In this document: positions 1,364-23,700 of the stretch, in pieces | Layout of the letters: the number at the start of each line of letters is the position of its first letter | How positions within the stretch are numbered: the first letter of the stretch is position 1 | Virus record (IMG/VR): IMGVR_UViG_3300045941_000223 | Coordinates: 1-64,000 of that record | Direction: 5' to 3' (one strand) | From: a virus | Length of the DNA: 64,000 nt | Program-made: the position numbers and the translations under genes | Notes under the pieces: generated by a model | Told to the model about the DNA's origin: nothing | Database searches by the model: none | Seen by the model: the letters and a program-made list of their open reading frames with translations, nothing else

Positions 1364-1628
1364 CACCGTCGAGATCGAGGTCGAGCTGGACCGCCGGGCA
1401 GGTGGTCCGATCTTCGAGTACGTCGTCCGTTTCCGCGGATCGGGCAAGCTGCTGTGCCGATCGGTGCTGCCGTTCTTCGGTGCGTGCCGGGCGCTGGCCG
1501 AGCAGGGTTACCCGCCGTCCACCCGGGTGGAGATGTGGCGGCCGGGCATGCGGCATTGGGATCTCGCCGGTCACATCGGCGGGGCCGAGTGGTTCCCCAA
1601 CAAACCGGAGCTGCCGTTCGTACCATGA
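1350..1628 (+). CDS. Hypothetical protein
   Basis: ORF overlapping the terL start (ATGA). Confidence 0.55.
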   Translation: MSAPDTVEIEVELDRRAGGPIFEYVVRFRGSGKLLCRSVLPFFGACRALAEQGYPPSTRVEMWRPGMRHWDLAGHIGGAEWFPNKPELPFVP

Positions 1629-7962: not shown

Positions 7963-9443
7963 TGGTCGAGACTCTGAAGGTCGATATTCTGCAGACGGAG
8001 CTGGAGCAGAATCTGCCCTACTGGCTCGATCCGTCGCAGAAGAACGCCGAGCGGCACGCCGAGATCCGCGCCAAGCACCGGCAGCGATGGCTCGACGAGC
8101 AGAAGCGCGAGAAAGGCTGGAAGCGGGCCAAGCAGGACGCGTGGTTGCTGCTCCGCAAGTATGACGAAAGCGAGCACCCGCGGGACGAACGCGGACGCTG
8201 GACCGATGCAGGCGGCGGTGACGGTGGTAAGCCCGACGTTGGCACCGGCTCCGAGAAGTCCAAGGGCGACTGCATGTCGGCCGCCTACAAATGGATCAAG
8301 GAGCATCCGGAGGAAACGCTGGTCCACGGCATGGTCACCAGCGACGGCAAGCGCTTCCCGCACGCGTGGGGTGAGGACAATGACGGCAACGTCCACGAGG
8401 TCAGCAACGGACAGAACGTGGTCGTGCCGCGGGCCGAGTACTACGAGCGCTTCGAGGTCAAGCCGGACGATCCCGCCGAGTATCACCGCTACACGCACAC
8501 CGAGGCGCTGGTCCAGTCGGTGCGGGCAGGGCATTATGGCCCATGGGATATCAGCGAGGAAACGGTCGATCTCGATCGGCTCGAAGAGAGCACCGGCGGC
8601 GGCTACCGCAAGCCCGGCAAGAAGCCCAGCGATCTATCGGATTTTCTCGGCAAGGAACGGGTGCAGATTTCCGACAATGTGGACGATCCTCACAACCTGA
8701 TCAAGAATTGGAACAAGTACATCGGCATGGACCCGGAAGAGTTCGCCGATAGTTTTTTCGGCGCGAGGTACAAGCCGCAAATGACGGTCAGCTACGGTGC
8801 GGGTCAAATCTATGTCGATGCCTTGCTGCAGAATCCAAGGACCGGAGAACATCTCGCATCGGTGTCGCGGTTTATCAACGGTCCGAAGAACCGGGCCACC
8901 GCATCGTTCTTCGAGGTTGACTCGGCTCAGCAGGGCAAGGGCATCGGCAAGCAGGTGACCGCCAGTAACGTGAAAATGTACGCAGACCTTGGCATCACCG
9001 AGGTTCACGCACGCTGCAACATCAATGTAGGCGGATATGCGTGGGCGAAGTACGGCTACGTGCCACGCGATCGAGAGGCATGGGAGGAATTGGCCGATAA
9101 GGTTCAGGAAAAGCTCGAAAACATGGACGAAGATGATGTCTCGGACCAAGAGCGCGAAACGATCATCGAGCTAATCGACAATCCAGATCCCAAGGCGGTG
9201 TGGGCGATTGCTGATTCCGAGGTCGGCAAGGAGCTGCTGACCGACACCGAGTGGGACGGCGTGCTCGACCTGACCGACAAGGAAGTGCTCGAACGGCTGA
9301 ACGCCTACATCGGCACCAACATCAAGCCGGTGAAACCGAAGCCTTTCGACGACGAAGACGACGATGATGATTTCGACCGGCCGGTGACGGTCAGGCCGGG
9401 CGATGAAGATGATGATGACGATGACGATCGCATCGACCCATAA
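7962..9443 (+). CDS. PRD-GRWT-tagged effector 2: Cys-His peptidase/transglutaminase-like + GNAT
   Basis: YDESEHPRDERGRWTD at 8160; GDC...LVHG...HAW; QQGKGIG acetyl-CoA motif and VGGYAWAKYGY; acidic tail. Confidence 0.75.
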   Translation: MVETLKVDILQTELEQNLPYWLDPSQKNAERHAEIRAKHRQRWLDEQKREKGWKRAKQDAWLLLRKYDESEHPRDERGRWTDAGGGDGGKPDVGTGSEKSKGDCMSAAYKWIKEHPEETLVHGMVTSDGKRFPHAWGEDNDGNVHEVSNGQNVVVPRAEYYERFEVKPDDPAEYHRYTHTEALVQSVRAGHYGPWDISEETVDLDRLEESTGGGYRKPGKKPSDLSDFLGKERVQISDNVDDPHNLIKNWNKYIGMDPEEFADSFFGARYKPQMTVSYGAGQIYVDALLQNPRTGEHLASVSRFINGPKNRATASFFEVDSAQQGKGIGKQVTASNVKMYADLGITEVHARCNINVGGYAWAKYGYVPRDREAWEELADKVQEKLENMDEDDVSDQERETIIELIDNPDPKAVWAIADSEVGKELLTDTEWDGVLDLTDKEVLERLNAYIGTNIKPVKPKPFDDEDDDDDFDRPVTVRPGDEDDDDDDDRIDP

Positions 9444-11232
9444 GACCGGTGAGCTGTTCTACGTCGATGACGCAGGCGAGCGGCAGGACGCTTCGCTGCA
9501 TCAGGAAATCCTCGACGAAGGCGATCATCTCCGCGCGCTCGCGGTCTCGCGCAAGGTCATGCGGCGGCTCGGGCTCGATCCCGACGTGCTGCTCAAGCAG
9601 AAGGCATTCGATCCGTCGCAGCCGCGCGACGAGCACGGGCGATGGACCGATACCGGCGGGTCGGACGACAGCCTCGCCGAAGATACGATCGGCGGCTACG
9701 ACCGCATCCCCGGGCTTCCGCCCGGCACCAAGATCCGCGATCCGAGTGACAGCATCGCCACCGCGCTCAATCGCGACGCGTTCGATATGACCGCCGAGAA
9801 GAAAGAGCGCGGACCGTTCGACGACGGCGACACCTACCATCTGACCATCACGTCGAAGCTCGCTCCCGGCATCGAGCCATTCGAATCTCGGCCGGGCCAG
9901 ACCCGCTACTATGATCCCCGGCTGGCGCGTCTGGAAACCATCGACGCCGGGACAATCATAGAGAGGACTTATGCGAGACCGAAAGACACAGACGCGACGG
10001 AAATCCAGCCGCTCGAAGGCGAGAAAATCATCTATCGCGGCATCTCGGCGGAAGAGTACCAAGCGATCCTCGAAACCGGCAAAGTCTCGTCGAAGGGCGA
10101 ATACAACATCGGTGAGGACCAGCGAGGACTGACCTACTGGACGACAAAGCCCAACACGGCGGCGTCCTACGCCAGCGGCTTCGCTCCATGGCAATTCGCG
10201 CCAACCTTCACCAAGCCCGCCTACGTGATCGCCGCCCGCATGCCGGAAGAAACCCGCGAGGTTCCCGGCACCGGCGAGAACGAGGTCGGCGTCGCCCGCC
10301 CGATCGAGCGGAGCGAGCTGCTGGCGGTGTGGCGGGGCGATGTCTACTCGCACACGCCGGGCGAGATCGATCTGAAGCAGATCGGCTCTTCCGATACCTA
10401 CCGGATGGGCTCGGCCTCACATCCGAACAGCCCCGTGGTCTGGAGCCGGGAAGATCAGGGTCTCGCCGAGGACACGGTTGGCTATGCCAACCCTGCCGAA
10501 GAGACCACCGAGAAGGCCACGGTCGGCGGCCGGACCTACCCGGTGCGCGACAACAAGAACCACGTGATTGATACCTCCCGCATGCGCGGGGCGGCGATCG
10601 TCTATGACGACAACACGGTGTCGATCCTGCACGTCACCGACACCCCGGAGCGGGTCGAGCAAGGGCTGAACGATGCGCCCGAGGATCTGACCACCGCCTT
10701 CGGCAACGTCGGCGACGATCTCGGCGCTGGCTTCTACGGTTCCGCAGTGCCGCAAATCTGGATGTCACGATCGGCGGGCAAGTGGGACTTCCTGTCGAGC
10801 ATGACCAGCGCGCAGAAGCAGGACTACGTGACCTACCTGCGCGGCAAGATCGAACAGCAGCGCTCGGTGAAGTACATCACCGCCAACGAGTACGAGCGCG
10901 CGGTCCGCGATCTCGGATACTTCGAGAGCGGGCAGACCGACTACATCACATGGTCCGCCGAGCAGCCCTACAACATCGAGTCGTGGAAGCCCGAGACGCT
11001 GGCCACGCTCGGCATCACCCCCGGCAAGCAGCCCGAGGTCATGGACATTCGCCTGCGGGGGAGGTTCGTCGATCTCACGGCCGGGGGCTTCCGGCAGTCC
11101 GACGTGGAAGAGCTGCAGAAGCGCGGGTACGACGGTGCCTACGTGCAGGGCTCATTCTCGTACACCCCGCAATTCGTGATCTGGAACAAGGCGGCGATCA
11201 CCGAGATCAAGCGCTCCAAGCATGCCCGTTGA
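9421..11232 (+). CDS. PRD-GRWT-tagged effector 3: two ADP-ribosyltransferase-like domains
   Basis: FDPSQPRDEHGRWTD at 9607; IYRGIS...YWTT...A..YA...ENEVGV; second domain HVT...LGAGFY...GYDG...QFVIWN (ART-PolyVal-like). Start uncertain (9403-9421). Confidence 0.65.
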   Translation: MTIASTHKTGELFYVDDAGERQDASLHQEILDEGDHLRALAVSRKVMRRLGLDPDVLLKQKAFDPSQPRDEHGRWTDTGGSDDSLAEDTIGGYDRIPGLPPGTKIRDPSDSIATALNRDAFDMTAEKKERGPFDDGDTYHLTITSKLAPGIEPFESRPGQTRYYDPRLARLETIDAGTIIERTYARPKDTDATEIQPLEGEKIIYRGISAEEYQAILETGKVSSKGEYNIGEDQRGLTYWTTKPNTAASYASGFAPWQFAPTFTKPAYVIAARMPEETREVPGTGENEVGVARPIERSELLAVWRGDVYSHTPGEIDLKQIGSSDTYRMGSASHPNSPVVWSREDQGLAEDTVGYANPAEETTEKATVGGRTYPVRDNKNHVIDTSRMRGAAIVYDDNTVSILHVTDTPERVEQGLNDAPEDLTTAFGNVGDDLGAGFYGSAVPQIWMSRSAGKWDFLSSMTSAQKQDYVTYLRGKIEQQRSVKYITANEYERAVRDLGYFESGQTDYITWSAEQPYNIESWKPETLATLGITPGKQPEVMDIRLRGRFVDLTAGGFRQSDVEELQKRGYDGAYVQGSFSYTPQFVIWNKAAITEIKRSKHAR

Positions 11233-13027
11233 TCCGCACCCGCAAGAGACCCGTACCGATTTCATGAACCGGTGCTGCTTCGAAACCGGTCGCGCCGAGC
11301 CCGGGTGGAGCAACGACGCCGTGGCGGCGGCCTGCTTCAGCGCATGGGGGCGCTCGCGCGCCAACAAGCAGGCGGCATGGCAAAACGCTCGGGGAAGGGC
11401 CATATCTACCCTGCGGTTCGACCCGAACCAGCCGAGAGACGAATATGGCCGATGGACCGACGCAGGCGGATCAGGACTTGCTGAAGGACTTGACGAAGGA
11501 AGACCGGGAGCTGGTGCTGTCCACGGTGAAAAATCACCCCGGCCTTTCGATCGAAGAAGCCCTACGGATGTTGAAAGCAGCCGGAATGTAGTCGCGGTCT
11601 GGACCCGCGGCAGTCACACATTCCATGAGCTGAACGCTGACGGTGCCGGGCGCTTCAGCGTCGCCATCCAATCGGCCAAACATTCCAATCCGTACGGGGC
11701 GTCGGTCCACGCCTACCCGACCAGAGCCTACGAGTACATGCGGACGTTCGTGTCGCCGAACGGCGACTACGGCTTCGCCCTCAAGGGCGACGATATCGTC
11801 TCGCTGTTCAAGAACCCGAACTCGGATCAGCCCGGTGTGGCTGGCGCGGCGATCGACCTCGCCGTACAGCAAGGCGGCCGACGCGCCGACGCATTCGATA
11901 CCGTCCTGCCGGACCTCTACGCCAAGCACGGCCTGCGGGTGGTCGCGCGCCTCGCGTGGGACGACAAGGAAGCACCGCCCGGCTGGGACAAGAAGACCTA
12001 CCAGAAGTTCAACAACGGCGAGCCGGACGTGGTGTTCATGGTCTACGACCCGGCCTCGACGACCTATACCGCTGGGCAGGGCGAGCGGGTGGACGAGTAC
12101 GACGACGGCAAGGCGACGCAGGACCGGGAGCTGGAGGCGATCGACGCCGCCAAGCCACCGGAACCGCCGCCGCCACCGAGACCGGAGCAGCCGCGGTTTG
12201 GATTCGGGGAGGCCGATCCCAAGCTGGAGATCAACCGGCAGATATCGGCCGATTACGTGCTGCGAGAAGGCAGGCGCACCGACACCGAGCACCTGCGCTG
12301 GATCGATCTGGCCACCGGCGAGCTGTCACCGGAGATCGAGGAAGGTACCGAAAAGGAAGTCGGCTTCGGGCCCGAGCTGGGAAAGGCGCTGGACGATCCG
12401 TCCCGCGCGATCGAGGTTGATCACAATCACCCGAACTCCAGCCCGCTCTCGGTGCAGGATCTGGCCATTCTCAGCACCAAGCCGGGATGTTACGGCGTGC
12501 GGGCGCTCGGCCACGACGGCAGCATCTATGCCGCCAGCCGACCAGCGAGGCATGACATTCGTGGCGCATTCAAGAAGGCGAGGGGGGCGCAGTACACCGA
12601 CGCCGACGAGTTTCTGGTCGATGAGATCACGTCGGAAAAGATGGAGCCGGATCGGGGTACGAAGATTTTCTTCCATGCCGTCAGCGATGCGCTCGGACGC
12701 AACGGCTGGTTCGATTACGGCTTCCGCCTCGCGCCCGATCTCCAGCGCGATATCGATCGGCTGAGCAAGGAGTACAACGCACTGGTCGCCGACATGCAGA
12801 AACGCGCCGGGCCGCCGCCGACGTTCGCAGGCAGATCGATCGATATCGATTGGGAGAAGTACCCGGTGCCGAATGCCTTCATCGATCCGCCCGGCGAGTA
12901 CGAGCCGCTGGACGAGTGGATCAGCTATCGGAAGGAACTCGACGAGCTGAGCCATCTCCCCGGCATCGAGCCGTTCAAGCAGGAAGCCGACGAAATCATC
13001 GAGCGCAAGCGGAGGCAGCAGAAATGA
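11222..13027 (+). CDS. PRD-GRWT-tagged effector 4: capsid-like N-domain + GNAT-like + JAB/MPN
   Basis: FDPNQPRDEYGRWTD at 11417; DIVSLF...GGRRADAFDTVLPDLYAKHGL; HNHPNSSPLSVQD JAB motif at about 12422. Confidence 0.7.
   Translation: MPVDPHPQETRTDFMNRCCFETGRAEPGWSNDAVAAACFSAWGRSRANKQAAWQNARGRAISTLRFDPNQPRDEYGRWTDAGGSGLAEGLDEGRPGAGAVHGEKSPRPFDRRSPTDVESSRNVVAVWTRGSHTFHELNADGAGRFSVAIQSAKHSNPYGASVHAYPTRAYEYMRTFVSPNGDYGFALKGDDIVSLFKNPNSDQPGVAGAAIDLAVQQGGRRADAFDTVLPDLYAKHGLRVVARLAWDDKEAPPGWDKKTYQKFNNGEPDVVFMVYDPASTTYTAGQGERVDEYDDGKATQDRELEAIDAAKPPEPPPPPRPEQPRFGFGEADPKLEINRQISADYVLREGRRTDTEHLRWIDLATGELSPEIEEGTEKEVGFGPELGKALDDPSRAIEVDHNHPNSSPLSVQDLAILSTKPGCYGVRALGHDGSIYAASRPARHDIRGAFKKARGAQYTDADEFLVDEITSEKMEPDRGTKIFFHAVSDALGRNGWFDYGFRLAPDLQRDIDRLSKEYNALVADMQKRAGPPPTFAGRSIDIDWEKYPVPNAFIDPPGEYEPLDEWISYRKELDELSHLPGIEPFKQEADEIIERKRRQQK
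11445..11591 (+). CDS. Overprinted 48-aa ORF nested in effector 4 (+1 frame)
   Basis: MADGPTQADQDLLKDLTKEDRELVLSTVKNHPGLSIEEALRMLKAAGM*; GAGAG upstream; helical pattern. Confidence 0.55.
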   Translation: MADGPTQADQDLLKDLTKEDRELVLSTVKNHPGLSIEEALRMLKAAGM

Positions 13028-14136
13028 CCGCCACCGTCGATGGACGCCCGGCCACGCTGGCCTACTTCAAGGGCGAGTTCGATCCGGCGAGCGAGGCCGA
13101 CGCCACCTTGGTGCAAATCACCTTCATGGACGCCCGCGGCGGATCGCACTTCTACGTGCCCGATCCCGCCAAGCGCGAAGCCGAGAAGCGATCGATCCAA
13201 TGGAAGCGGGCCAAGGCCAGAGCGCAGGTGTTGCTGCGCGAGTTCGACGAGAGCAAGCATCCGCGCGACGAGCGCGGACGCTGGACGGACGGCGGGGGCG
13301 GCGACGACAGTCTCGCCGAGGACACCGAGAGCGGGTACGGGAAGAACCCGACCGCCACCGAGATTTACGAGAGCTACAAAACGCCGACGATGGAAGAAGT
13401 GCGGGCGCGGCTGAGCCCGCGTGATATCGAAGAGATCGATCAGGCCAAGCGCGATATGGAAGGTCGCATTCCGACCATGGCGCAATTCAAGCAACCGGAC
13501 GGCAAGTACACTCCGGAACGCGTGGCAGTGCACGCCGACATTATCAAGAACAAGATGAAGCTGTTCAGCCCGGAGAACATTGCCAAGTACACGCCACCAG
13601 CAGGCGAGAAGCCATTGGTGACGCTGGTCGGTGGGCGACCAGCCAGCGGCAAAACCACGTCGCTACCGGCTGAAATTATGGAATCGAGCCTATATATATC
13701 CGCAGACGACGTGCAGGAACATTTGCCCGGATACGAGCCCCGGCTGGCTGGCCTGTTCAACGGCGAGGCGCAAGAGATTGGCGATCGTATCGAAGAGATG
13801 GCCCGCGAGCTGAAGATCAACGTCATCTTCGATTCGACTATGAAGACGCAAAAAACCGCCGCCGGGCGGCTTGCGGCCTACCAGCAGGCGGGTTACGAGG
13901 CGGACGGGTACTTCGTCAGCACGTCGCCGATCGAATCGGCCGTGCGGACGGTCGGCCGGTTCCGGCACAAGAAGGGCGACTACAGCGGGCGGTTCGTGCC
14001 GCCGGAAGTGACGATCGCCAGCACGACCAACGAGAAGACATTCGACTCGCTGAAGTCGGAGTTCCGGAGCTGGAAATTGTTTGATAACAACGGGGACAAG
14101 CTCAAGCTGGTCGCCGAAGGTGGAAAAGGGAAGTAG
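13024..14136 (+). CDS. PRD-GRWT-tagged effector 5: zeta-toxin-like P-loop kinase
   Basis: FDESKHPRDERGRWTD at 13243; GGRPASGKTT, ISADD, NVIFDSTM, GRFVP motifs. Confidence 0.8.
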   Translation: MTATVDGRPATLAYFKGEFDPASEADATLVQITFMDARGGSHFYVPDPAKREAEKRSIQWKRAKARAQVLLREFDESKHPRDERGRWTDGGGGDDSLAEDTESGYGKNPTATEIYESYKTPTMEEVRARLSPRDIEEIDQAKRDMEGRIPTMAQFKQPDGKYTPERVAVHADIIKNKMKLFSPENIAKYTPPAGEKPLVTLVGGRPASGKTTSLPAEIMESSLYISADDVQEHLPGYEPRLAGLFNGEAQEIGDRIEEMARELKINVIFDSTMKTQKTAAGRLAAYQQAGYEADGYFVSTSPIESAVRTVGRFRHKKGDYSGRFVPPEVTIASTTNEKTFDSLKSEFRSWKLFDNNGDKLKLVAEGGKGK

Positions 14137-14139
14137 GCC

Positions 14140-14319
14140 ATGAAGCCATTGCCAAAGCGCACCGACCGCGGGCCGCTCATCGTCGAGACGCCAGCCGGTC
14201 CGCTCTACGCGGACGACACCTATGGCGAGGGATTTAACCCTCCGAAGCCGGATGATCCGTTGATGCAGGCGATCAGGCAGGGGATCGCCGAGGACAAGGC
14301 CAAGGCCGGGAAGTCCTAG
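14140..14319 (+). CDS. Small protein downstream of the zeta-like gene (candidate antitoxin)
   Basis: 59-aa ORF MKPLPKRTDRGPL...AGKS*, 3 nt after the zeta-like stop; below the ORF-track cutoff. Confidence 0.5.
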   Translation: MKPLPKRTDRGPLIVETPAGPLYADDTYGEGFNPPKPDDPLMQAIRQGIAEDKAKAGKS

Positions 14320-14519
14320 GCCGCGTTGGCCGTGGTTTCGGTCTCTTTGCTCTCCCAGCAGGCCAGATGACCGTTCCATCGGATCGTATGGTTACCGAAC
14401 ATCACGCGGACCTCGCGCAAGGTCAGGTTGGCGGGAACCAACCCCATCAGCGTGCCGTTCGCTCCGACGACTTTAACGAGCCGGGCCGTCACCGGTCCGT
14501 CTCTGATCAGGCGGGTCAT
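14316..14519 (-). CDS. Hypothetical protein
   Basis: Strong GGAGG RBS, directly downstream of a repeat promoter. Confidence 0.6.
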   Translation of the reverse strand: MTRLIRDGPVTARLVKVVGANGTLMGLVPANLTLREVRVMFGNHTIRWNGHLACWESKETETTANAA

Positions 14520-14543
14520 TAGTCTTACCTCCCTTCCAATACT

Positions 14544-14573
14544 AATATAGGGCGTAATGGCCTACATTTCAAG
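14544..14573 (-). promoter_or_regulatory. Sigma70-type promoter with TAGG-N9-CCTA operator
   Basis: CTTGAAA-N17-TATATT on the - strand; dyad 14548-14564. Confidence 0.8.
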
Positions 14574-14831
14574 ATGCCGCTCGTAATCCATCCTCGCCAC
14601 GTCTTCCGGCGAATGCTTCTTGCGCACCATCAGCCGCAGCAGCATGGCGGTGGCGCGCGGGATCGGGGCCTCGCCCAGCGCCCAGCGCCGCGACGTGCGC
14701 GGGCCGACGCCGATGAACCTGCCCGCCTGAACTTGATTCAGGTCGAGCGCGTCGATCGCTTCTCGGTACTGTTCTTTGGTCATGACGCGCTTCGCGGTCT
14801 TCTTCTTGGTAGCGGTCTTGCGCTTGGCCAT
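14562..14831 (-). CDS. Xre/Cro-like HTH regulator
   Basis: LDLNQVQAGRFIGVGPRTSRRWALGEAPIP helix-turn-helix; flanked by operator copies. Confidence 0.85.
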   Translation of the reverse strand: MAKRKTATKKKTAKRVMTKEQYREAIDALDLNQVQAGRFIGVGPRTSRRWALGEAPIPRATAMLLRLMVRKKHSPEDVARMDYERHLEM

Positions 14832-14854
14832 GGGAACCTCCGCATCTGCGGCAA

Positions 14855-14884
14855 CTCCTAGGACGTAATGGCCTAGCTCGCAAG
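14855..14884 (-). promoter_or_regulatory. Promoter/operator copy upstream of the HTH gene
   Basis: CTTGCGA-N17-TAGGAG (weak -10); dyad 14859-14875. Confidence 0.7.
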
Positions 14885-15478
14885 AGCCTGCTCAGGGTTG
14901 TGAACACATCGCCGGACGAGTTCCTGATGCAAGAGATCGGACATATCCCAGCTCCCGCCGTTGATCCGGCGATCGGTCGCTCGGTCGATGTAGGGGCCGA
15001 ACCCGCTGGAATGCAGCAGCTTGAACTCGGCAGGGTTAACGCCGTGCCTGCGGCAGGCGGCCTCGAACGCCCGGCGGCCGAACTCTTCGGAGTACTTCCG
15101 GTCGGTAAATACATAGTCGGAGCCGAACCGGACCTTCTCGGCCCTGAACGAAGGCTGCAGCTCCGATCGGGACTCGACCATGCCCATGGAACTCGCGGTG
15201 CCCTTGGTCTCGGCGAACGTCGCCGAACCGTCCGGCATCAGCCATGCGTACTTCGAGTACTTCAGGTCGATCATGCCGTCGAAGCCGCCACCGGCGTAAG
15301 CGTTGGTGACCGCCTCGACCATCTTGGTGGTCGGGCCGTCCGTCCAGCCGACTCGGATCGAGGCTCCACCGGAGTAGGTGTGCGATCGGACCGAGAATTT
15401 GACGCCCGGGAATGCCTTCTTCAGGGCGACCCGGATCAGCTTGGCAGTCTCGGCGCAGCTCAGGTAGCGGGTAGTCAT
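14873..15478 (-). CDS. LPD29-like domain protein
   Basis: YLSCAETAKLIRVALKKAFPGVKFSVRS..YSGGASIRVGWTDGPT. Confidence 0.75.
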   Translation of the reverse strand: MTTRYLSCAETAKLIRVALKKAFPGVKFSVRSHTYSGGASIRVGWTDGPTTKMVEAVTNAYAGGGFDGMIDLKYSKYAWLMPDGSATFAETKGTASSMGMVESRSELQPSFRAEKVRFGSDYVFTDRKYSEEFGRRAFEAACRRHGVNPAEFKLLHSSGFGPYIDRATDRRINGGSWDMSDLLHQELVRRCVHNPEQALAS

Positions 15479-15660
15479 TTCGTTCCTTTCGTCATGGTGA
15501 AGGGATAGGCCAGCGCGGTCAGGTAACCGTCGCGGGCAGCGAGGATGGCAGCACCAGCATCGGTTATGTCGAGAGCGCAGGCATCGCACCGCTCGATCGC
15601 TTCGCGGCCATCGGCTCGCTCGACAATCAGGTAGCGCTTGTCGTGGCAGGTATCGCACAT
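15475..15660 (-). CDS. Small Zn-finger-like protein
   Basis: CDTC...IERCDAC. Confidence 0.55.
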   Translation of the reverse strand: MCDTCHDKRYLIVERADGREAIERCDACALDITDAGAAILAARDGYLTALAYPFTMTKGTK

Positions 15661-15674
15661 CAGATGATCTCCCT

Positions 15675-15893
15675 TCACTCTTCGTTCGCGCCCCAATCGC
15701 AGCCGTGCTCTTTCGCCTTCTTGGCGGCGAAGCGATCGGCGGCGCGGCGGGCTTCGGCGTAGTCGCGGTAGGCGTCGCCCTCGACGCCCCACTCGAACTC
15801 GCCCTGATCGAAGATGTCGTTGCCTTCGTCGTCGAGCCCGTAGACGTGGATCTGGCGCTGCAGGCGGTTCACATCGACGTAGACATAGGTCAT
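15675..15893 (-). CDS. Hypothetical protein
   Basis: MTYVYVDV..., GAGAGG RBS. Confidence 0.55.
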   Translation of the reverse strand: MTYVYVDVNRLQRQIHVYGLDDEGNDIFDQGEFEWGVEGDAYRDYAEARRAADRFAAKKAKEHGCDWGANEE

Positions 15894-15907
15894 GTCAGTC
15901 CTCTCGC

Positions 15908-16069
15908 TTAAAACCGGATCTCGAAGTCGATCTCGCCGTTGCGTTCCGGCGTCTTCTCCGGAGGCGGCACCGGGATCGGGAGGTAGAGCGGCAGTCGCCG
16001 TTCCTCGAACTCGCGGTCTTCGCGCTCGCGGCGGCGGCGCAGCTCTTCGATCATCCAACCGGGCAACAT
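15908..16069 (-). CDS. Hypothetical protein
   Basis: MLPGWMIEELRRRRERE...; coupled to the upstream ORF. Confidence 0.55.
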   Translation of the reverse strand: MLPGWMIEELRRRREREDREFEERRLPLYLPIPVPPPEKTPERNGEIDFEIRF

Positions 16070-16200
16070 CAGTAGACCTCCGTTCCGGGCACCAGCCACT
16101 TGCTGCCGCCCCAATAGTCCACGACGAACAGACCAAACTCGGTGTATTCGAGGTAGATCCAGAGCTTCTTCTTCAGCTCTGCCTTCCAGATAGTCTTCAT
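16069..16200 (-). CDS. Small hypothetical protein
   Basis: MKTIWKAELKKK...; start uncertain. Confidence 0.45.
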   Translation of the reverse strand: MKTIWKAELKKKLWIYLEYTEFGLFVVDYWGGSKWLVPGTEVY

Positions 16201-16330
16201 GGTTCTTTCCAGATGTGCGGGGCTCGGGAGGTTCGTGCCTCCCGTCCCCATCTTGGACGCGGCGGTTCGCCCCGCGCCTGCGGGAAGGATGGTTCCGACT
16301 TCGGTCTTGGCCATTTCTCCCTCCACCATA

Positions 16331-16368
16331 CATATAGGGCGTAATGGCCTATAGGGCAAGGGGGCCTA
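16331..16368 (-). promoter_or_regulatory. Promoter with two abutting TAGG-N9-CCTA boxes
   Basis: Boxes at 16335-16351 and 16352-16368; CTTGCCC-N17-TATATG. Confidence 0.8.
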
Positions 16369-16647
16369 CGGACTATCTTGGACGTGCATGGCAATATGTT
16401 CCAATTCCGCAATTATCTTGTGAATAACGGTCAGCCGGGCACGATGCTCGGCAAGCGCTTCGTTGATGGCCGTTGGTCCGGACGGGTAGTAGTCGCGCCC
16501 GTTGGGCGCGCTGGCGGCTATCGCCTTCTCGGCCTCGCGAAGGGCGTGGATCGCGGCGATGTAGCCGTTGAAGAGATCGTCCCGGTGCGTGCCGTTCAGG
16601 TGGACGACCGGCAGGGTTAAGGCGTGCAGCGAGTTTCTAATCAGCAT
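16366..16647 (-). CDS. Hypothetical phage protein
   Basis: PVVHLNGT...PNGRDYYP. Confidence 0.65.
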   Translation of the reverse strand: MLIRNSLHALTLPVVHLNGTHRDDLFNGYIAAIHALREAEKAIAASAPNGRDYYPSGPTAINEALAEHRARLTVIHKIIAELEHIAMHVQDSP

Positions 16648-16828
16648 CGATCGGCTCGTCGCTCCAGTAATTGGGGTCGGTCAGCACGTCCGGCCGGTAA
16701 CCGGCCATCTTGCGCTTGTGGCAGACCACGCAGGTCCGGCAGAGCGGAATCCCGCGGGCGTCGTATGCCCATGTGGACGGTCGGCCAGAGCCGCAGGGGC
16801 AGGGGCTGGCTCGGTAGCGGTCGGTCAT
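16637..16828 (-). CDS. Small Zn-binding protein
   Basis: CPCGSG...DARGIPLCRTCVVC. Confidence 0.65.
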   Translation of the reverse strand: MTDRYRASPCPCGSGRPSTWAYDARGIPLCRTCVVCHKRKMAGYRPDVLTDPNYWSDEPIDAD

Positions 16829-17061
16829 GCTTTCCACCTTCTCTTTGTCAGCTCTTGCGCCTGATCGAGCAGGCCGCGTTCCTTCAGCAGGAAGTAGGGC
16901 AACTTCTCGATTTCGTGGAGCGGCAGCGCGGCGAGCGGCTTGCCTGCATCGAAGTAGCAGCGCGGATGCGCGTAGTGCCGGGTGCCGTACTTGACCAGCT
17001 CGTCGGACGGCACCATCGGCCCCTTGCAGAACCGGCAGCTATTCCAGCGCTCGCGCCACAT
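16825..17061 (-). CDS. Small Zn-finger-like protein
   Basis: CRFC...KYGTRHYAHPRC. Confidence 0.6.
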   Translation of the reverse strand: MWRERWNSCRFCKGPMVPSDELVKYGTRHYAHPRCYFDAGKPLAALPLHEIEKLPYFLLKERGLLDQAQELTKRRWKA

Positions 17062-17064
17062 CGC

Positions 17065-17250
17065 TCAGTACTCCGACGTTCCGTCCGCGTATTCCTTGCG
17101 GACCAGCACGTGCAACGCCTCGATCTCGTCGTCGCTGTACTTGTTGGTCATCCACGCCAGAGCTTCAGCGAGATGCTTGATGCCCTCGCGCACCACCCGC
17201 TCGCCTTCGTATCCGGCGTTCTCGACCACGGTGTAGGTCTTTGGTTTCAT
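17065..17250 (-). CDS. Hypothetical protein
   Basis: GGAGG RBS; part of a coupled run. Confidence 0.6.
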   Translation of the reverse strand: MKPKTYTVVENAGYEGERVVREGIKHLAEALAWMTNKYSDDEIEALHVLVRKEYADGTSEY

Positions 17251-17262
17251 CCATCCCTCCGT

Positions 17263-17658
17263 TCAGAAGCTGAAGTCGTGGTACTTGGCGCGCTCGCCGA
17301 TCCGCAGGCCGTAGCCTCCGGTCTTGACCAGCCGCCCGGTCTTCTCATTGCGGGCGACTTCGTCCCACATGCCGTGCTTGTTCATCTTGAACAGGTGGAC
17401 GCGGCCGTTCTCGTTGGGCTCGAACAGGTAGGTCTGGCTCTCGCTGAACCCGTTCTTGTCGGTCCGGGTGGCGTTGTCCTCGCGCACCGTGAGCACCGTC
17501 GCGCCGCGCTCGCGGGCGATGCCGATCACCGTGCCGGGGTAGCGGTCGGTCCAAGACAGCATGGTCGCGCCCATGCCGACCGTTGCGTCGGGCTGGCCCT
17601 TCACCGCGCGGGCCAGAACGTGGTTCGTCAAAGAGCCGGTCTGTGTTCCGAGTTTCAT
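17263..17658 (-). CDS. Hypothetical phage protein
   Basis: VGMGAT...WTDRYP...YHDFSF. Confidence 0.7.
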   Translation of the reverse strand: MKLGTQTGSLTNHVLARAVKGQPDATVGMGATMLSWTDRYPGTVIGIARERGATVLTVREDNATRTDKNGFSESQTYLFEPNENGRVHLFKMNKHGMWDEVARNEKTGRLVKTGGYGLRIGERAKYHDFSF

Positions 17659-17673
17659 CGCTTCCTTCTCCCT

Positions 17674-18471
17674 TCACTCTGCAGCAAGGTCTGCGGTCTT
17701 CACCCGCATGACCACCGTCTGCTTCTCGCCGTTGTATTCGCCGTGCTCTTTCACGGTGGCAGTCAGCAGGAACTTCTCGCCCTTCTCGGCGTGGAACCGG
17801 GGGGTCTTGCTCACGATCGCGTTCCCGGCGGCGTCGCGCATGGTCACGATCCAGACCGTTTCCTCGCTATTGCGGAACCCGAACGCGGCCCGCGCGTAGC
17901 TCGCGACCCGCTCGACCGTGACCGCGGCGGTGATCCGCTCGCCGACCTTGCCGACGTGGCCGCTCGCGGCCTTGACGGCGTCTTCGGTGGCGATCCGCTC
18001 GATCGCGGCGGCGAGCGCGGCAGCCTGCTTCTCGGTCAGCTCGGCCTTCTCATGCGCCTTGCGCAGCACGTCGGCGATGAATTCGTTCCGGCCCTTGAAG
18101 GCTTCCGCCTTGGCCAGCAGCTCGCCGTAGGTTTCGAGGAAGCCCGCCCGCTTAGCGTCGGCTTCCGCGGCGGCGGCGGCGGCCAGCTCGGCGGCGACCG
18201 CGGCCTTCTTCGCCGCCCGCTTCGCGGCGGTGGCGTTCAGCTTGGCCAGCTCGGCTTCGGTGTAGAGCCGGACGGTTTCGAGACCCTTGTGGCCGGTGCC
18301 GCCGCAGCCGTAGCAGGTCCAGCCGGTGGCCGCCCAAACGTCGGCACCGCCAGCGCCACCGCAGCGGTGGCAGGTCCGGTGCCTCTGAAAGGCGGGCTTA
18401 CCCTTGCCGGTGAGGTAAACGGCACCGCCGTGGGCGGTGCCAGCTCGGGTGAACAGGGCGGCGGTGGTCAT
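17674..18471 (-). CDS. Zn-finger + OB-fold-like protein
   Basis: CHRCGG...CYGCGGTG; C-terminal HVGKVGER...ATVKEHGEYNGEKQTVVMRV. Confidence 0.7.
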   Translation of the reverse strand: MTTAALFTRAGTAHGGAVYLTGKGKPAFQRHRTCHRCGGAGGADVWAATGWTCYGCGGTGHKGLETVRLYTEAELAKLNATAAKRAAKKAAVAAELAAAAAAEADAKRAGFLETYGELLAKAEAFKGRNEFIADVLRKAHEKAELTEKQAAALAAAIERIATEDAVKAASGHVGKVGERITAAVTVERVASYARAAFGFRNSEETVWIVTMRDAAGNAIVSKTPRFHAEKGEKFLLTATVKEHGEYNGEKQTVVMRVKTADLAAE

Positions 18472-18486
18472 TTTCCCTCCACCCCT

Positions 18487-18516
18487 TATATAGGGCGTAA
18501 TGGCCTATCCCGCAAG
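18487..18516 (-). promoter_or_regulatory. Promoter/operator copy
   Basis: CTTGCGG-N17-TATATA; dyad 18491-18507. Confidence 0.8.
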
Positions 18517-18524
18517 GGGTGCTT

Positions 18525-18833
18525 TCACTCTACTTTCTCGAAGCCGAACCGGGCAACCTTCCAGACTTCCCGGGTGGCAAGGTCGATCGCCACGTCGCCG
18601 ACCGACATGCTGGTATGCCGCAACCCGAGCGCCTTGATCATGCCGAAGGCTTCGCCGTTGGGCGACCAGCGCTCGCCCTGCATCTCGACGAACACCGCTT
18701 CGAGGTTGTCCGCTTCGATCTCGCGCAGGCGGATGTGGGTCTTACCGAGATCGGCCGCGATCGGCTTGCCGAGCCCGCAGATGCCGTCGCGGAAGTGCTC
18801 GGGCCGCATGTACCAGACTTCGAACTTGCGCAT
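18525..18833 (-). CDS. YodL-like domain protein
   Basis: HTSMSVGDV...GFEKV signature. Confidence 0.65.
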   Translation of the reverse strand: MRKFEVWYMRPEHFRDGICGLGKPIAADLGKTHIRLREIEADNLEAVFVEMQGERWSPNGEAFGMIKALGLRHTSMSVGDVAIDLATREVWKVARFGFEKVE

Positions 18834-18836
18834 CGC

Positions 18837-19166
18837 TCAGTACTCCGCTGCCAGCATGATGGTCAGCACCCGGCCCGTGACCTTGGGATCGGCAGGGTCT
18901 TCGCTGCCGTACTCGAATGCCTTGTCGTAGTAGTCGATCTTGAAGAACGCCTTCTCGCCGTTGACCTCGATCGCGCCGAAGTCGTGCTCGCCGTACGGGT
19001 CGTCGCCGTCCGTGAAGTCCTTGAACTCGCGCACCTTGGTCAGGAAGTCCTCGCGCTTGTCGTGGTCGCGGATGCCTTCGGTGAGAACCACCCGGCCGAG
19101 CTGCGGCAGGAACGTGCCGCGCAACAGGTCGTTCAATTCGCGGATCTTGGCAGTCTTGTCGGTCAT
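18837..19166 (-). CDS. DUF3768-family protein
   Basis: IRELNDLLR...DPYGEHDFG...FFKIDYYD...RVLTIMLAAEY. Confidence 0.85.
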   Translation of the reverse strand: MTDKTAKIRELNDLLRGTFLPQLGRVVLTEGIRDHDKREDFLTKVREFKDFTDGDDPYGEHDFGAIEVNGEKAFFKIDYYDKAFEYGSEDPADPKVTGRVLTIMLAAEY

Positions 19167-19354
19167 CGGTCACCTTTCTTGATGGCGTCTTGCCGTTCAG
19201 TTTCGAGTCGGAACATGCGGGCGTTCAGGCTGTATGCCTCGCCGCTGAGCCCGCCGTTGAAGCAGGACGTTCGCCTGATGCCCTTGGCGCGCATCTCGGC
19301 GCGGGTCTCGCGTAGCTCTCGGTTGATCTCTTTGAGCGTGCGGTTGCCGAACAC
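19163..19354 (-). CDS. Hypothetical protein
   Basis: Coupled ORF with RBS. Confidence 0.55.
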   Translation of the reverse strand: MFGNRTLKEINRELRETRAEMRAKGIRRTSCFNGGLSGEAYSLNARMFRLETERQDAIKKGDR

Positions 19355-19403
19355 GTCGTGTCCTTTCAGGTGTGACCGCCGGGCGAACCCGGCGGCCGGT
19401 GGT

Positions 19404-19847
19404 TCAGTCCATCCGAGATCCGGCGTAGGCTTTGACGCCCAGCTCGGTGGTCAGCACTTCCGCCATCGCGCGGGCGGCGGCTTCCTTCCGCTCCAGCGAC
19501 TGACCGAAGTCAGAGATCCAGATATCGACGCCGCCGCGGTAGGCCGCCCGGGCCAGCTTGTTCTTGACCAGCCACTTGGCGAAGCTCGACGTGCCGGGAT
19601 AGACCGTTACCCACGCGAACCCGCAGACCCCTTCCGCTTCGTACCAGCGGTTGCCGCCCTCGACCGGCTTCCCGGCGAGATCGGCGTCGAACACGACCAT
19701 GGCGCGGGGCTTGGCGGCCTCGCCCGCGGCCTTGGCGGCGGCGGCGGCCTTGGCGTAGGCGGCCTCGAAGGCGGCGTAGCGGGCCTTGCGGGCCTTGGTT
19801 TCCGCGGCGATCTTCTCGCGGAGCGAACCATATTCAACGGCAGTCAT
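19404..19847 (-). CDS. Hypothetical phage protein
   Basis: GVCGFAWV...QSLERKEAAARAMA...SRMD. Confidence 0.7.
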   Translation of the reverse strand: MTAVEYGSLREKIAAETKARKARYAAFEAAYAKAAAAAKAAGEAAKPRAMVVFDADLAGKPVEGGNRWYEAEGVCGFAWVTVYPGTSSFAKWLVKNKLARAAYRGGVDIWISDFGQSLERKEAAARAMAEVLTTELGVKAYAGSRMD

Positions 19848-19923
19848 TCGTCCTTCCCTTTCCGGAGAGCCGGGCGTGTCACGCGGTGGCCACCGCCATC
19901 CGGCTCTCCCTCTCTCCACTACT

Positions 19924-19961
19924 TATATAGGGCGTGGTGGCCTATAGGGCAAGGGGGCCTA
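19924..19961 (-). promoter_or_regulatory. Promoter with two abutting TAGG-N9-CCTA boxes
   Basis: Boxes at 19928-19944 and 19945-19961; nearly identical to 16332-16368. Confidence 0.8.
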
Positions 19962-20531
19962 TCCGGTGACGACCAACAAATTTTCGCGGGCTCGGGCGGT
20001 CAGCCGGTAGAGCACGTAGTCGTTCCGGAACAGAACCTTCCGGCCACGCTTCACGACCGTGAAGGTGTCGATCTTCGCCCCGTTGCGGAACTCCATCGGC
20101 GCGGGGAGCTTGACGACCATCCCGGCCCGGAGCTTGGGGGCGGCCTTGCGCCGGTCGATGTTGGCCCGGCAGCGAGCGCGCCAGTCGCGTGCGTACTTGG
20201 CACCGTCGCCCTTGGCGTCGTCGGCGATCGGCGACAAGAAATCGAGGACCGCGGCGGGCGCGGTGCTCTCGACCGGGCCCATGAACTCGTCCATGTCCTT
20301 CCAGCCGAAGTTGTAGTCGCCCTTGGCCCACTTGGTCAGGAGCACCAGCGCGACCCGAACCTTGCCGTTGGCGTCCGGCACCAGCCGGGCTTCCTTCTCG
20401 GCATCAAGCTCGATGACGGCGTAGAACACCCCGGCCTTGGTGGCCGTGGCCTTGAACTTCATCCCGAACTCGCGCTCGAACCAGTCGGCGGTGGTCACGC
20501 CCTTCGGGCGGTAGGTATACGTCCAACCCAT
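19959..20531 (-). CDS. DUF6927-like protein
   Basis: MGW...FYA...FGWKDMDEFMGP...A.DWRARC. Confidence 0.7.
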   Translation of the reverse strand: MGWTYTYRPKGVTTADWFEREFGMKFKATATKAGVFYAVIELDAEKEARLVPDANGKVRVALVLLTKWAKGDYNFGWKDMDEFMGPVESTAPAAVLDFLSPIADDAKGDGAKYARDWRARCRANIDRRKAAPKLRAGMVVKLPAPMEFRNGAKIDTFTVVKRGRKVLFRNDYVLYRLTARARENLLVVTG

Positions 20532-20547
20532 CAGCTTGCTTCCTTCC

Positions 20548-20763
20548 TCACATGAGCACCCGGTTCCCAGCCACCTTGGCGGTGGCGAGCGGGATCAGCG
20601 CAGCGACCGAGAAATTGACCATGGCGCGGTGCTTGGTTCTGACCCGCTTTGCGTGAGCAACCGCCGCGGCGTCCTTGGCGGTTGCGAACTTCCAGATGTC
20701 GCCGTTGGCGTCCTTGAGCCAACCAGCAACACCACCGATGACCGTCCAGATTCCGAAGAACAT
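20548..20763 (-). CDS. Hypothetical protein
   Basis: MFFGIWTVIGG...; the frame is open further upstream to 20973. Confidence 0.5.
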   Translation of the reverse strand: MFFGIWTVIGGVAGWLKDANGDIWKFATAKDAAAVAHAKRVRTKHRAMVNFSVAALIPLATAKVAGNRVLM

Positions 20764-20977
20764 CGCTCTTGGGCCGCGGGCCGGGGGCTCAAATCGGCAG
20801 TCGGACCGGTCTCGTAGCGGGGGCTCTAGATCCCGCGTTCCTGCCGCTGCCGTCAGACGGAGGGGAGGTTGTGTGGCCCGGTGCGTAGGCAATCCCGTCT
20901 CCCCGGACCCCAAGCACGCATCCTCAGTCCGTTCCGCAATCTCTTCCGGCCTTTCCGGCTTCCCTCCTTCCACTACT

Positions 20978-21023
20978 TATATAGGCCATGGTGGCCTACT
21001 TTCAAGTAGGGCGTGGGAGCCTA
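20978..21023 (-). promoter_or_regulatory. Leftward promoter plus two operator boxes at the divergence with the capsid gene
   Basis: CTTGAAA-N17-TATATA; dyads at 20982-20998 and 21007-21023. Confidence 0.8.
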
Positions 21024-21048
21024 GCGGAAATAAAAGTAGGAGAGTTCC

Positions 21049-23304
21049 ATGCCGATGAAGCCAAAGGATGGCGAGAGCCGATCGGATTTTCTCAGCCGCT
21101 GCGTCCCCGAGATGATGGGTGACGGGAAGCGCGAGAAGGATCAGGCGGTCGCAGCCTGCATCAGCATGTACGGGCAGAAGGGATACCTCGAAGCGGGCGG
21201 GCACTGTGAGCCAGAGCCCGGCGAGGACTACAACGATTTCATCGAACGCTGCATCGATGAAGGTGGCGACGAAGAAGAGTGCCACCTGATCTGGGAAGAC
21301 GAGGGCGAGAAGTCCGCCAGCGGCCGTCGCCTCAAGCACAAGACGCACGCGTCGCCGAGCGAGAGCGGGATGATGTTCATCCTGAGCGACGACACGCCCG
21401 ATCGGATGGGCGACGTGATCGTGGCCGAGGGCTGGGATCTTACGAACTTTCGAAAAAATCCCGTGGCTCTCTTCAATCACAATCCGGATTTTGTGATCGG
21501 CATGTGGAAGTCGTTGTGGATCGAAGGCAATTCTCTGCGCGGGCATCTGCAGCTCGCGCCCGAGGGAACCTCCGCTCGCATCGACGAGATCCGCAAGCTG
21601 GTCGATGCAGGAATCTTGCGTGCCACTTCGGTCGGCTTCCGTCCGATCGACAGTGAACCGCGCAAGTCGTCGGAGCCGATGGGCGGCATCACCTACAAGC
21701 GTTGCGAGCTGATCGAGACCTCACTGGTCGCGGTGCCAGCCAACCCCAACGCTCTGGCGGTCGCCAAGTCACTCCGCGTTTCGTCCGGGACGATCGATCT
21801 CGTTTTTGCCAAGCACGGCAAGGGAAACGGGAACGCTCGCCGGGGCGCTCACGGCAAGCACGCCGACACGTCTCGAAGTGGAAAGTCCAAAGCCATGACT
21901 ACACTGGCGCAACGCGTCACAGACGCACAGGCCCGGTTGCTGAACTTGCGTGACCAGCTCACCGAGCATCTGAAGTCCGTCGATGACACTGCCGTCACCG
22001 ACGAGCAGATCACGCTCACCAACGAACTCAATGCCAAGATCACGCAGGAAGAGAAGGGGCTTGGCGCTCTGCGTGACGCCGAAGCGAGGCTGGCCAGCGC
22101 GGCCAACAACGCCAGCGGCGGCGGCGACGGCGGTAACGGTGGCGGCACCGTCGTGAAGAATGGCGGCAGCGTCGATACCGCCAAGCGGCCGTTCGGCCTG
22201 CCGGTGCGCAAGATGGACCCGCTCGAATATCTCGTTCGCGCGGGCACCGTGCGCTATATGTCGAAGGTCACCGGCGACAGCATCGACGTTTGCCGACAGA
22301 AGATTTACGGCAACGACGAAGCCACCAAGGTGATCGTCGATTACTGCGCCAAGGCGGCAAGCGCTCCAGCGTTGACCACGGTTGCGGGCTGGGCGGCCGA
22401 GCTGGTCCAGCAGGTCAACGCGTCGTTCATGGAAACCCTGCAGCCGCAGGCGGTGTTTCCGCAGTTGTCGGCACTCGGCATGTCGCTGAGCTTCGGGCGC
22501 AACGGTCGCATCGCCGTTCCGACTCGGGCGGCGACGCCGACCATCGCGGGATCGTTCGTCGGTGAAGGTCAGCCGATCCCGGTCCGTCAGGCCGCATTCT
22601 CGTCGGTGCTCTTGACCCCCAAGAAAATGGCCGTGATCACCAGTTGGTCCAGAGAGATTGACGAGCATTCGGTGCCCGCGATCGAGGGCTTGCTGCGCAA
22701 CGCGATCCAAGAGGACACCGCGGTGTCGATCGACTCGGTGCTGCTCGACAGCAACGCGGCGACCGCCATCCGTCCGGCTGGCATTCGCAACGGCGTGGTC
22801 GGTCTCACGCCGACCGCGGGCGGCGGGTTCGCCGCACTGGTGGGCGATATCAAGCAGCTCACCGGCGCACTGCTGACGGCCACCAACGGCAACATCCGCA
22901 ACATGGCCTTCATCATGAACCCGCAGCAGGCGCTGAGCATCAGCCTGATCCAGCCACCAGTCCCGGGCGGGCTGTTCCCGTTTGCCGACGAAGTGGCGGC
23001 CGGGCGGTTGCGCGGTGCCAAGCTGATCACGTCCGGCACCGTGCCGGTCTCCACCGTGATCTGCATCGACGCTGCGGACTTCGTGGTGGTCGGAGGCGAA
23101 GCCCCTCGCTTCGAGATCAGCGATCAGGCGACGCTTCATATGGAGGATACGACTCCGCTGCCGATCGTCGCGGGCACCACCGCTGCCGATCCGACGCGTT
23201 CGTTGTGGCAGACGGATTCGCTCGCTCTGAGGCTCATCCTTCCTCTGAATTGGGCTCTCAGGCGCACCGGCACCGTCTCTTGGCTCACCGCGGTCACGTG
23301 GTGA
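21049..23304 (+). CDS. Prohead protease (HK97/S78-like) fused to major capsid protein
   Basis: DRMGDVI...NPVALFNH...SVGF...ETSLVAVPANPNA; coiled-coil delta-like region; HK97-fold motifs FVGEGQPIP, LTPKKMAVI, SLWQTDSLALR. Confidence 0.93.
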   Translation: MPMKPKDGESRSDFLSRCVPEMMGDGKREKDQAVAACISMYGQKGYLEAGGHCEPEPGEDYNDFIERCIDEGGDEEECHLIWEDEGEKSASGRRLKHKTHASPSESGMMFILSDDTPDRMGDVIVAEGWDLTNFRKNPVALFNHNPDFVIGMWKSLWIEGNSLRGHLQLAPEGTSARIDEIRKLVDAGILRATSVGFRPIDSEPRKSSEPMGGITYKRCELIETSLVAVPANPNALAVAKSLRVSSGTIDLVFAKHGKGNGNARRGAHGKHADTSRSGKSKAMTTLAQRVTDAQARLLNLRDQLTEHLKSVDDTAVTDEQITLTNELNAKITQEEKGLGALRDAEARLASAANNASGGGDGGNGGGTVVKNGGSVDTAKRPFGLPVRKMDPLEYLVRAGTVRYMSKVTGDSIDVCRQKIYGNDEATKVIVDYCAKAASAPALTTVAGWAAELVQQVNASFMETLQPQAVFPQLSALGMSLSFGRNGRIAVPTRAATPTIAGSFVGEGQPIPVRQAAFSSVLLTPKKMAVITSWSREIDEHSVPAIEGLLRNAIQEDTAVSIDSVLLDSNAATAIRPAGIRNGVVGLTPTAGGGFAALVGDIKQLTGALLTATNGNIRNMAFIMNPQQALSISLIQPPVPGGLFPFADEVAAGRLRGAKLITSGTVPVSTVICIDAADFVVVGGEAPRFEISDQATLHMEDTTPLPIVAGTTAADPTRSLWQTDSLALRLILPLNWALRRTGTVSWLTAVTW

Positions 23305-23415: not shown

Positions 23416-23700
23416 ATGGCCGATCAAGCAGAGACCGCGGCGAGGAAAGTCATCGCGGAAAACAAGGCAGCCCGCACAGCGGCGGTGAAGGAGGGCAACC
23501 CGGCAGAGGGGAGCACGCCGACGCCGACGCAGGAAGAGAACGATCTCGCCAAGCTCGGCGTGGTCGTTGATCCGAAGGCCGACGACGGTTCCGGACCGGA
23601 GATGCAGATGCAGATGGTCCGGCGGACAGTCGAGGCCAAGCCAGCGCAGGCTGGCTACGCCACCCGCAGCGTCGCACCAGCTTCAAAGCCGAAGGAATGA
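23416..23700 (+). CDS. Hypothetical head-associated protein
   Basis: PTPTQEENDLAKLG; AGGAG RBS. Confidence 0.7.
   Translation: MADQAETAARKVIAENKAARTAAVKEGNPAEGSTPTPTQEENDLAKLGVVVDPKADDGSGPEMQMQMVRRTVEAKPAQAGYATRSVAPASKPKE

Follow-up and report, generated by a model that had tools for sequence, protein, structure and literature searches.

The stretch of DNA analysed here (the window) comprises bases 1–64,000 of the 77,254-nucleotide (nt) virus record IMGVR_UViG_3300045941_000223, which is rated complete by CheckV. On the plus strand, a gene for the large terminase (1454–3139) is followed by three genes without assigned function and by an array of five effector genes. After the array come an inverted block on the minus strand (approximately 14.5–20.9 kb) and a gene encoding a fusion of prohead protease, scaffold and major capsid protein, with genes for the portal (23697–25157), a collagen-like protein and the tail sheath (29333–30943) located 3′ of it. 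A regular expression for the sequence P-R-D-E-x-G-R-W-T-D located this tag at residue 71–79 in all five effectors, which implies a fixed leader length of approximately 70 amino acids (aa), and in four of the five LAE stands shortly after the tag. The last effector of the array is Zeta_toxin-like by Pfam. The element considered in this report is a small module with a pair of Cys residues that lies at the N-terminus of the fourth effector (effector 4), before its tag, and in two copies at the N-terminus of the protease-capsid fusion.

An earlier note on this DNA had proposed that effector 4 and the capsid fusion share such a Cys-pair mini-domain. The three peptides on which the proposal was based were all found in place. 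Effector 4 begins with MPVDPHPQETRTDFMNRC...AAACFSAW, the letters MPVDP starting at residue 1, and the capsid fusion begins with MPMKPKDGESRSDFLSRC...AACISMY and continues into a second copy at residues 52–88. When the copies were aligned, the consensus P-x3-E-x3-DF-x2-RC...C-x3-(W/Y) was present in all three. The alignment is also significant, as BLASTP of the effector 4 N-terminus against that of the capsid fusion resulted in E-values of 5e-9 for the first copy and 3e-5 for the second. Smith-Waterman scores were 74, 50 and 53 compared with means of 18–20 (standard deviation approximately 4) for shuffled sequences, which places them 7–15 standard deviations above these means, and none of 5000 shuffles reached an equal score. 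Across the six reading frames of the window, the pattern E...[DE][FYW]..[RK]C matched at these three places only. A profile search gave the same result for the whole 77-kb record, in which a family profile built from 27 aligned sequences matched exactly these three places, with 68.5 bits for the effector 4 copy and 81.7 and 39 bits for the first and second capsid copies. At the level of sequence, the three copies in the window are therefore confirmed as homologous.

To determine the extent of the family, a word-based search was carried out with the three window copies. This search resulted in 51 proteins, nearly all of which are protease-capsid fusions or stand-alone S78 proteases that have the module at residue 1, usually together with a second, acidic copy. 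The 27-row alignment was used for an exhaustive hidden Markov model (HMM) search of 1.84 billion cluster representatives, which identified 3,443 clusters at E ≤ 1e-3 and 468 at E ≤ 1e-10. Among the best 145 bearers, the first copy nearly always starts at residue 1, and the number of copies per protein is one in 62 cases, two in 67, three in 10, and four to six in 6. Pfam annotation of 68 longer top bearers identified Peptidase_S78 in 33; XkdF-type S78_2, ClpP, S49, SDH_protease, DUF2213, capsid domains, and one Mu_F were also present. A second sample, consisting of 54 bearers of the "MPTP" subtype from viral contigs, contained S78 in 17 proteins, capsid fusions of three kinds in 11, DUF2213 in five and XkdF in two. 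Bearers that are not proteases include effector 4, an effector from a related viral contig (G001, described below), a MuF protein (P0210) and an HExxH protein (P0245). Relatives of P0210 in viral contigs were found to be without the module.

As judged from these comparisons, the module is a large, so far unnamed phage family that is carried mainly by head-building proteases. It has no match in Pfam or NCBIfam, and its PHROG matches are weak and to families without assigned function. No match was obtained among PDB sequences, and thus no relative with a solved structure. Searches of cultured phages by tblastn with single modules returned none, and the first 260 residues of the fusion matched such phages via the protease part only. 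Literature searches yielded no account of the module. In some contigs, the module makes up a gene of its own, encoding 50–62 aa, beside portal, scaffold, and capsid genes. Stand-alone genes of this kind (L094:10001–10186, L072:5728–5913, L074:9828–10013 and L035:9715–9864) directly follow either a portal-sized gene of approximately 745 aa or scaffold- or capsid-sized genes, and their contigs show no nearby S78 protease.

The residues conserved throughout the family are two invariant Cys, E9, D13-F14, R17, and an aromatic residue four positions past the second Cys, and all of these are kept in each of the three window copies. In the AlphaFold models, whose confidence is moderate to good, every copy folds into a helical hairpin (helices 11–21 and 31–63 in effector 4). 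The two invariant Cys lie in the middle of the two facing helices and adjoin conserved Phe, Ala and Trp positions, which would make up the core of the hairpin. Phage proteins in BFVD that superpose on the module at approximately 1 Å over 37–45 residues are unnamed or XkdF. When the model of the tandem module was submitted to structure searches, only generic hairpins were returned (best Foldseek match in the PDB with E = 3.8; VIA wide, Z ≤ 5). The copies differ in charge according to their position, the first being near neutral and the second and later ones having a net charge of −8 to −20, often with a shortened loop. A classical zinc ribbon or zinc finger was considered and rejected, as such sites need four Cys/His ligands and each module has two conserved Cys.

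The location of the two Cys on facing helices, and of the module immediately before the protease domain in most bearers, would also suit a metal- or redox-sensing pro-domain. The Cys pair would then bind a metal or form a disulfide and regulate or stabilize the bearer, without any role in targeting, for instance by restraining the protease before assembly or by stabilizing the bearer outside the reducing cytoplasm. The predicted disulfide oxidoreductase to which the module is joined in frame in P0039 (see below) could be taken in the same sense. We nevertheless regard a pro-domain as quite improbable, because the module is carried by non-proteases as well (effector 4, the G001 effector, P0210 and P0245) and occurs alone, and because a classical structural zinc site requires more than the two Cys available.

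In effector 4, the module shares the reading frame of the remaining gene and begins exactly at the ATG, as it does in most family members. The G+C content at third codon positions (GC3) of this segment is 0.83 in frame compared with 0.60 and 0.62 in the other frames, which argues that the module copy is coding. The public gene call for effector 4 (P0052) is 429 aa long and starts at residue 173; it therefore lacks window 11222–11737, which encodes the module and the tag together with some of the GNAT-like domain. Homologues of the downstream part of effector 4 align from residues 21–66 on. Its central domain has no Pfam match, and Foldseek aligned the model with many GNAT acetyltransferases (probability 0.95–1.0, E-values from 2e-4 to 6e-3, template modelling (TM) score of approximately 0.5 by target); the predicted α/β fold is accordingly described here as GNAT-like. 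This domain recurs in approximately 50 polyvalent-type proteins beside Zeta toxin, ADP-ribosyltransferase, NUDIX and Mu_F domains, and the PRDExGRWTD tag recurs at the domain junctions of polyvalent homologues of effector 4. P0083 combines the GNAT-like domain with the known head anchor Mu_F in one protein. No MuF domain (PF04233/PF06152) was detected in effector 4 itself by Pfam, PHROG, or NCBIfam. Within the C-terminal domain, the stretch HNHPNSSPLSVQD (residues ~405–420, window 12440–12480) may resemble a JAB/RadC metal motif in our own reading; this stretch has no Pfam match, and AlphaFold assigns it a predicted local distance difference test (pLDDT) score below 50.

The capsid fusion contains the protease and the major capsid domain in one polypeptide, as expected for an HK97-type prohead protease/major capsid fusion. 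It is matched by phrog_617, phrog_80, and phrog_4523 in PHROG and by TIGR01554, TIGR01543 and NF045541 in NCBIfam, of which TIGR01554 alone reaches the curated cut-off. A strong AGGAG ribosome-binding site precedes its ATG. The coordinates of all features are collected in Table 1.

Table 1. Location of the module copies and of the genes and domains that carry them (positions in the window).
Feature	Position	Strand	Remarks
Five tag-bearing effector genes	6010..14136	+	Between large terminase and head genes; module in effector 4 only
Effector 4 gene, 601 aa	11222..13027	+	Module, pre-tag helix, PRDEYGRWTD tag, GNAT-like domain (predicted), C-terminal domain of uncertain fold
Effector 4 module copy, aa 1–48	11222..11365	+	Cys18 and Cys38, additional Cys19; family profile E = 4e-20
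Pre-tag helix and PRDEYGRWTD tag (tag aa 71–80)	11366..11461	+	Common to the other four effectors
GNAT-like central domain (predicted), aa ~105–320	11534..12181	+	pLDDT >90 (AlphaFold); Foldseek matches
Prohead protease-scaffold-major capsid fusion gene, 751 aa	21049..23304	+	Pfam Peptidase_S78 and Phage_capsid
Capsid-fusion module copy 1, aa 1–48	21049..21192	+	Family profile E = 3e-24; helices 11–24 and 30–48; net charge 0
Capsid-fusion module copy 2, aa 52–88	21202..21312	+	Family profile E = 8e-11; helices 61–70 and 75–91; short loop; net charge −14
S78 (HK97-type) prohead protease domain, aa 119–237	21403..21759	+	Pfam PF04586
HK97-fold major capsid domain, aa 483–680	22495..23088	+	Pfam PF05065

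Several observations connect the module with both the effectors and the phage head. Single open reading frames (ORFs) were identified in which a tagged effector is joined in frame to a module-protease-capsid sequence. The effector part is an effector 4-like domain in P0032 and a Pyr_redox_2 domain in P0039, which predicts a pyridine-nucleotide disulfide oxidoreductase; P0118 contains three tags, and P0244 is a further ORF of this type that is interrupted by the end of its contig. P0039, P0032 and P0118 could be true polyproteins or could contain internal starts. In-frame ORFs of this composition argue for a place of such effectors in the prohead interior.

A second phage with the arrangement seen in effector 4 was found with a degenerate DNA pattern describing a module followed by a tag. 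This viral contig, G001, has the same gene order as the window phage, to which it is 65% identical in the portal and 47% in the capsid. Its first effector, encoded directly after the terminase gene, carries two copies of the module and then a PRDxxGRW tag, and its capsid fusion carries three copies. Strict scans with module-then-tag DNA patterns returned G001 only in viral contigs and none in metagenome contigs. Two further features of G001 were recorded. A second ORF with a capsid domain only is located upstream of its terminase gene (L128/L129, reverse strand, ~324–1442 of the reversed sequence) and encodes 373 aa that are 34% identical to the capsid part of the window fusion. The collagen-repeat protein that is encoded directly after the portal gene in the window (25201–26682; Pfam Collagen, four stretches) keeps this position in G001.

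The leader of effector 2 recurs on an unrelated effector, P0059, and a prophage of Bradyrhizobium sp. BRP22 encodes a stand-alone 73-aa homologue of it with neither tag nor payload (L101:9715–9936), located directly before a protease-capsid fusion and after a tagged effector of 1141 aa. Prophages of Bradyrhizobium are relatives of the window phage. This stand-alone gene parallels the stand-alone module genes, and the leaders that precede the tag are modular.

The question of how effector 4 acquired its module was then considered. A recent duplication from the start of the phage's own capsid gene was rejected, as the identity is 36% and the effector 4 copy is nearest to a "PDW-loop" subtype found on other proteases (P0047, P0105 and P0148) and not to the copies of its own capsid fusion; membership in that subtype rules out a recent internal duplication. 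A foreign subtype would also be expected if the module were a by-product of recombination, that is, the 5′ end of what was once a protease-capsid gene, displaced and captured through cassette exchange and without a specific role in effector 4. Effector genes of this lineage can lie directly upstream of a module-protease-capsid gene and are sometimes fused to it in frame, as in the four ORFs described above, and the 11-nt overlap between the stop of effector 3 and the start of effector 4 mimics that junction. The inverted block that now separates the array from the capsid gene fits the same history. A relic should be decaying, however, and the effector 4 copy keeps all of the residues that define the family, scores close to the first capsid copy and well above the second with the family profile and has the high in-frame GC3 noted above. 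In addition, the two-copy effector of G001 is independent and follows the terminase gene, not another effector, and the leader of effector 4 keeps the length of approximately 70 aa found in the other four effectors. A functionless by-product is on these grounds distinctly unlikely.

From the shared mini-domain, the earlier note had drawn the conclusion that the module acts in homotypic docking, linking cargo to the prohead scaffold or protease and thereby supporting the loading of the effector array into the virion. On this account, the effector 4 module would pair directly with the modules of the protease-capsid fusion, perhaps via a shared metal site or disulfides, and the pairing would load the effector. 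Tandem arrays of up to six copies do suggest multivalent self-association, and two invariant Cys per hairpin over thousands of clusters hint at chemistry that needs a second ligand pair. Moreover, in both phages with a module-bearing effector, the window phage and G001, the capsid fusion bears the module too. Approximately half of the related capsid fusions bear it anyway, however, which makes this co-occurrence in two genomes weak evidence.

If the module acted by pairing between two different proteins, two bearers would often be expected in one genome. Bearers were therefore counted in 95 viral loci, taken with at most 10 kb of flanking sequence and many of them shorter, so that one bearer per locus is a lower bound for whole genomes; exactly one bearing ORF was present in each of the 95. 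Of 22 prophage loci holding orthologues of the window fusion, 10 contained one bearer, 12 contained none, and a second bearer was found in none. Because none of these 117 loci has a second bearer, the usual job of the module cannot need two different bearers. Single-copy bearers are, moreover, as common as two-copy bearers among the best 145. Among the orthologues of the fusion, two copies are present in L100, L101 and L103, and one copy, always the acidic one, in L102, L104–107, L114 and L121; the others of L108–116 have no copy. The occurrence of close orthologues with zero to three copies indicates that the module is accessory to this capsid type. A comparison of gene content between orthologue loci with and without the module was confounded by phage lineage. 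The model of the tandem copies consists of two good hairpins with a disordered linker and a predicted TM score (pTM) of 0.44, and in structure searches the hairpins are aligned singly; stable pairing of the tandem copies in cis is thus not predicted, which we count as weak evidence. Taken with the difference in subtype between the effector 4 copy and those of the capsid fusion, these results do not support homotypic docking, which we consider unlikely.

The broader claim of the earlier note fared better in one part than in the other. The homology of the copies, the tie between the module and head-interior proteins, and the repetition of the pattern in G001 are all supported, and they make effector 4 plausible as a head-internal protein. 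The module cannot explain the loading of the whole array, however, since four of the five effectors lack it. Loading of the array must depend on some other feature, for which the tag common to all five effectors and its preceding helix are the most obvious candidates.

The interpretation that we favour, and to which we give about an even chance of being correct, is that the module is a prohead-interior association module that has been reused as one of several interchangeable effector leaders. Normally, it lies at the extreme N-terminus of proteins that build the prohead interior, namely maturation proteases, protease-scaffold-capsid polyproteins, and sometimes MuF proteins. There, it would keep its bearer in the assembling core, either via a common head component (the inner surface of the capsid, the scaffold, or the portal) or by self-association. 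In the lineage of the window phage, it would have been recruited as one of several swappable N-terminal parts of approximately 45 aa within the leader of approximately 70 aa, whose last parts are a helix and the PRDExGRWTD tag. Effector 4, a putative GNAT-like enzyme with a further C-terminal domain, would then enter the prohead together with the protease-capsid polyprotein. The homology of the copies, the size of the family, the position of the module, the kinds of protein that bear it, the modelled hairpin and the second phage of like design are results of the analysis, whereas we infer the association through the module, the partner that it would engage and any later removal of the leader.

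A number of points weigh against this interpretation. The module is undetected in cultured phages at the level of BLAST, and consequently there is no virion proteomics to borrow. Orthologues of the fusion work with zero to three copies, so that the module is not needed for capsid assembly itself, and a targeting role in the fusion looks redundant when the protease is already covalently joined to the capsid. The conserved F14, C18, A33, C37 and W41 mostly form the core of the hairpin, and no conserved binding face is therefore evident. Finally, the effectors found to have a module followed by a tag number only two, that of the window and that of G001.

A more far-reaching version, which appears to us somewhat unlikely, is that the module serves tailed phages in general as a portable address and clasp, self-associating or bridged by metal, that gathers the protease, MuF proteins, and some injected enzymes into the prohead core. 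If this were true, the module could load chosen proteins into HK97-fold capsids.

How phages choose the proteins that are packed into the head and injected is known in detail for a few models only, namely the T4 capsid targeting sequence (CTS), the P22 and HK97 tethers, and MuF fusions. The module described here is very common and un-annotated: thousands of uncultured phages carry it on their head proteases, and at least two related phages carry it on enzyme effectors as well. If it does act in head loading, it would explain the recruitment of proteases from unrelated families, it would allow effectors carried in virions to be predicted from metagenomes by a sequence marker, and it could be used as a small tag for packing proteins into phage capsids. 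If it is not, a mis-called gene start has still been corrected, and a new domain family worth a Pfam entry has been described.

Among known systems, the module can be likened to several terminal elements that place proteins inside a shell, and it would belong to none of them. The CTS of phage T4 is an N-terminal leader of approximately 10 residues, present on IPI–III and Alt, that brings non-structural proteins into the prohead core and is then cut off at an L/I-x-E site by the prohead protease. The effectors of the window likewise each have a leader of fixed length, but the CTS is unfolded and contains no Cys, whereas the module is predicted to be a folded hairpin of 45 aa with an unrelated sequence and is also present on the protease itself. 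Enzymatic or toxin domains of variable kind are positioned in the phage head by the MuF/SPP1 gp7 head-anchor domain, which is likewise N-terminal and conserved (PMC5576092, PMC5512222). Mu_F is joined to the GNAT-like domain of effector 4 in P0083 and to the module itself in P0210. A MuF domain is absent from effector 4, however, and the module is approximately one-fifth the size of MuF and has proteases, not portal-associated proteins, as its main hosts. Short terminal tethers that hold a protease or scaffold, as well as engineered cargo, inside an HK97-fold shell include the targeting tail of the HK97 gp4 protease and the helix-turn-helix coat-binding domain of the P22 scaffolding protein. 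The coat-binding element of P22 is a small helical hairpin, as the module is predicted to be, but the HK97 and P22 elements are C-terminal and without Cys, in contrast to the N-terminal, Cys-containing module. The P22-type hairpin was not among the Foldseek or VIA matches for the module, small hairpins matching only generically. The cargo-loading peptides of encapsulins, lastly, are portable tags that load enzymes into an HK97-fold shell, which is what is proposed for the module; these peptides are short and C-terminal, serve cellular nanocompartments, have no homology to the module and involve no protease.

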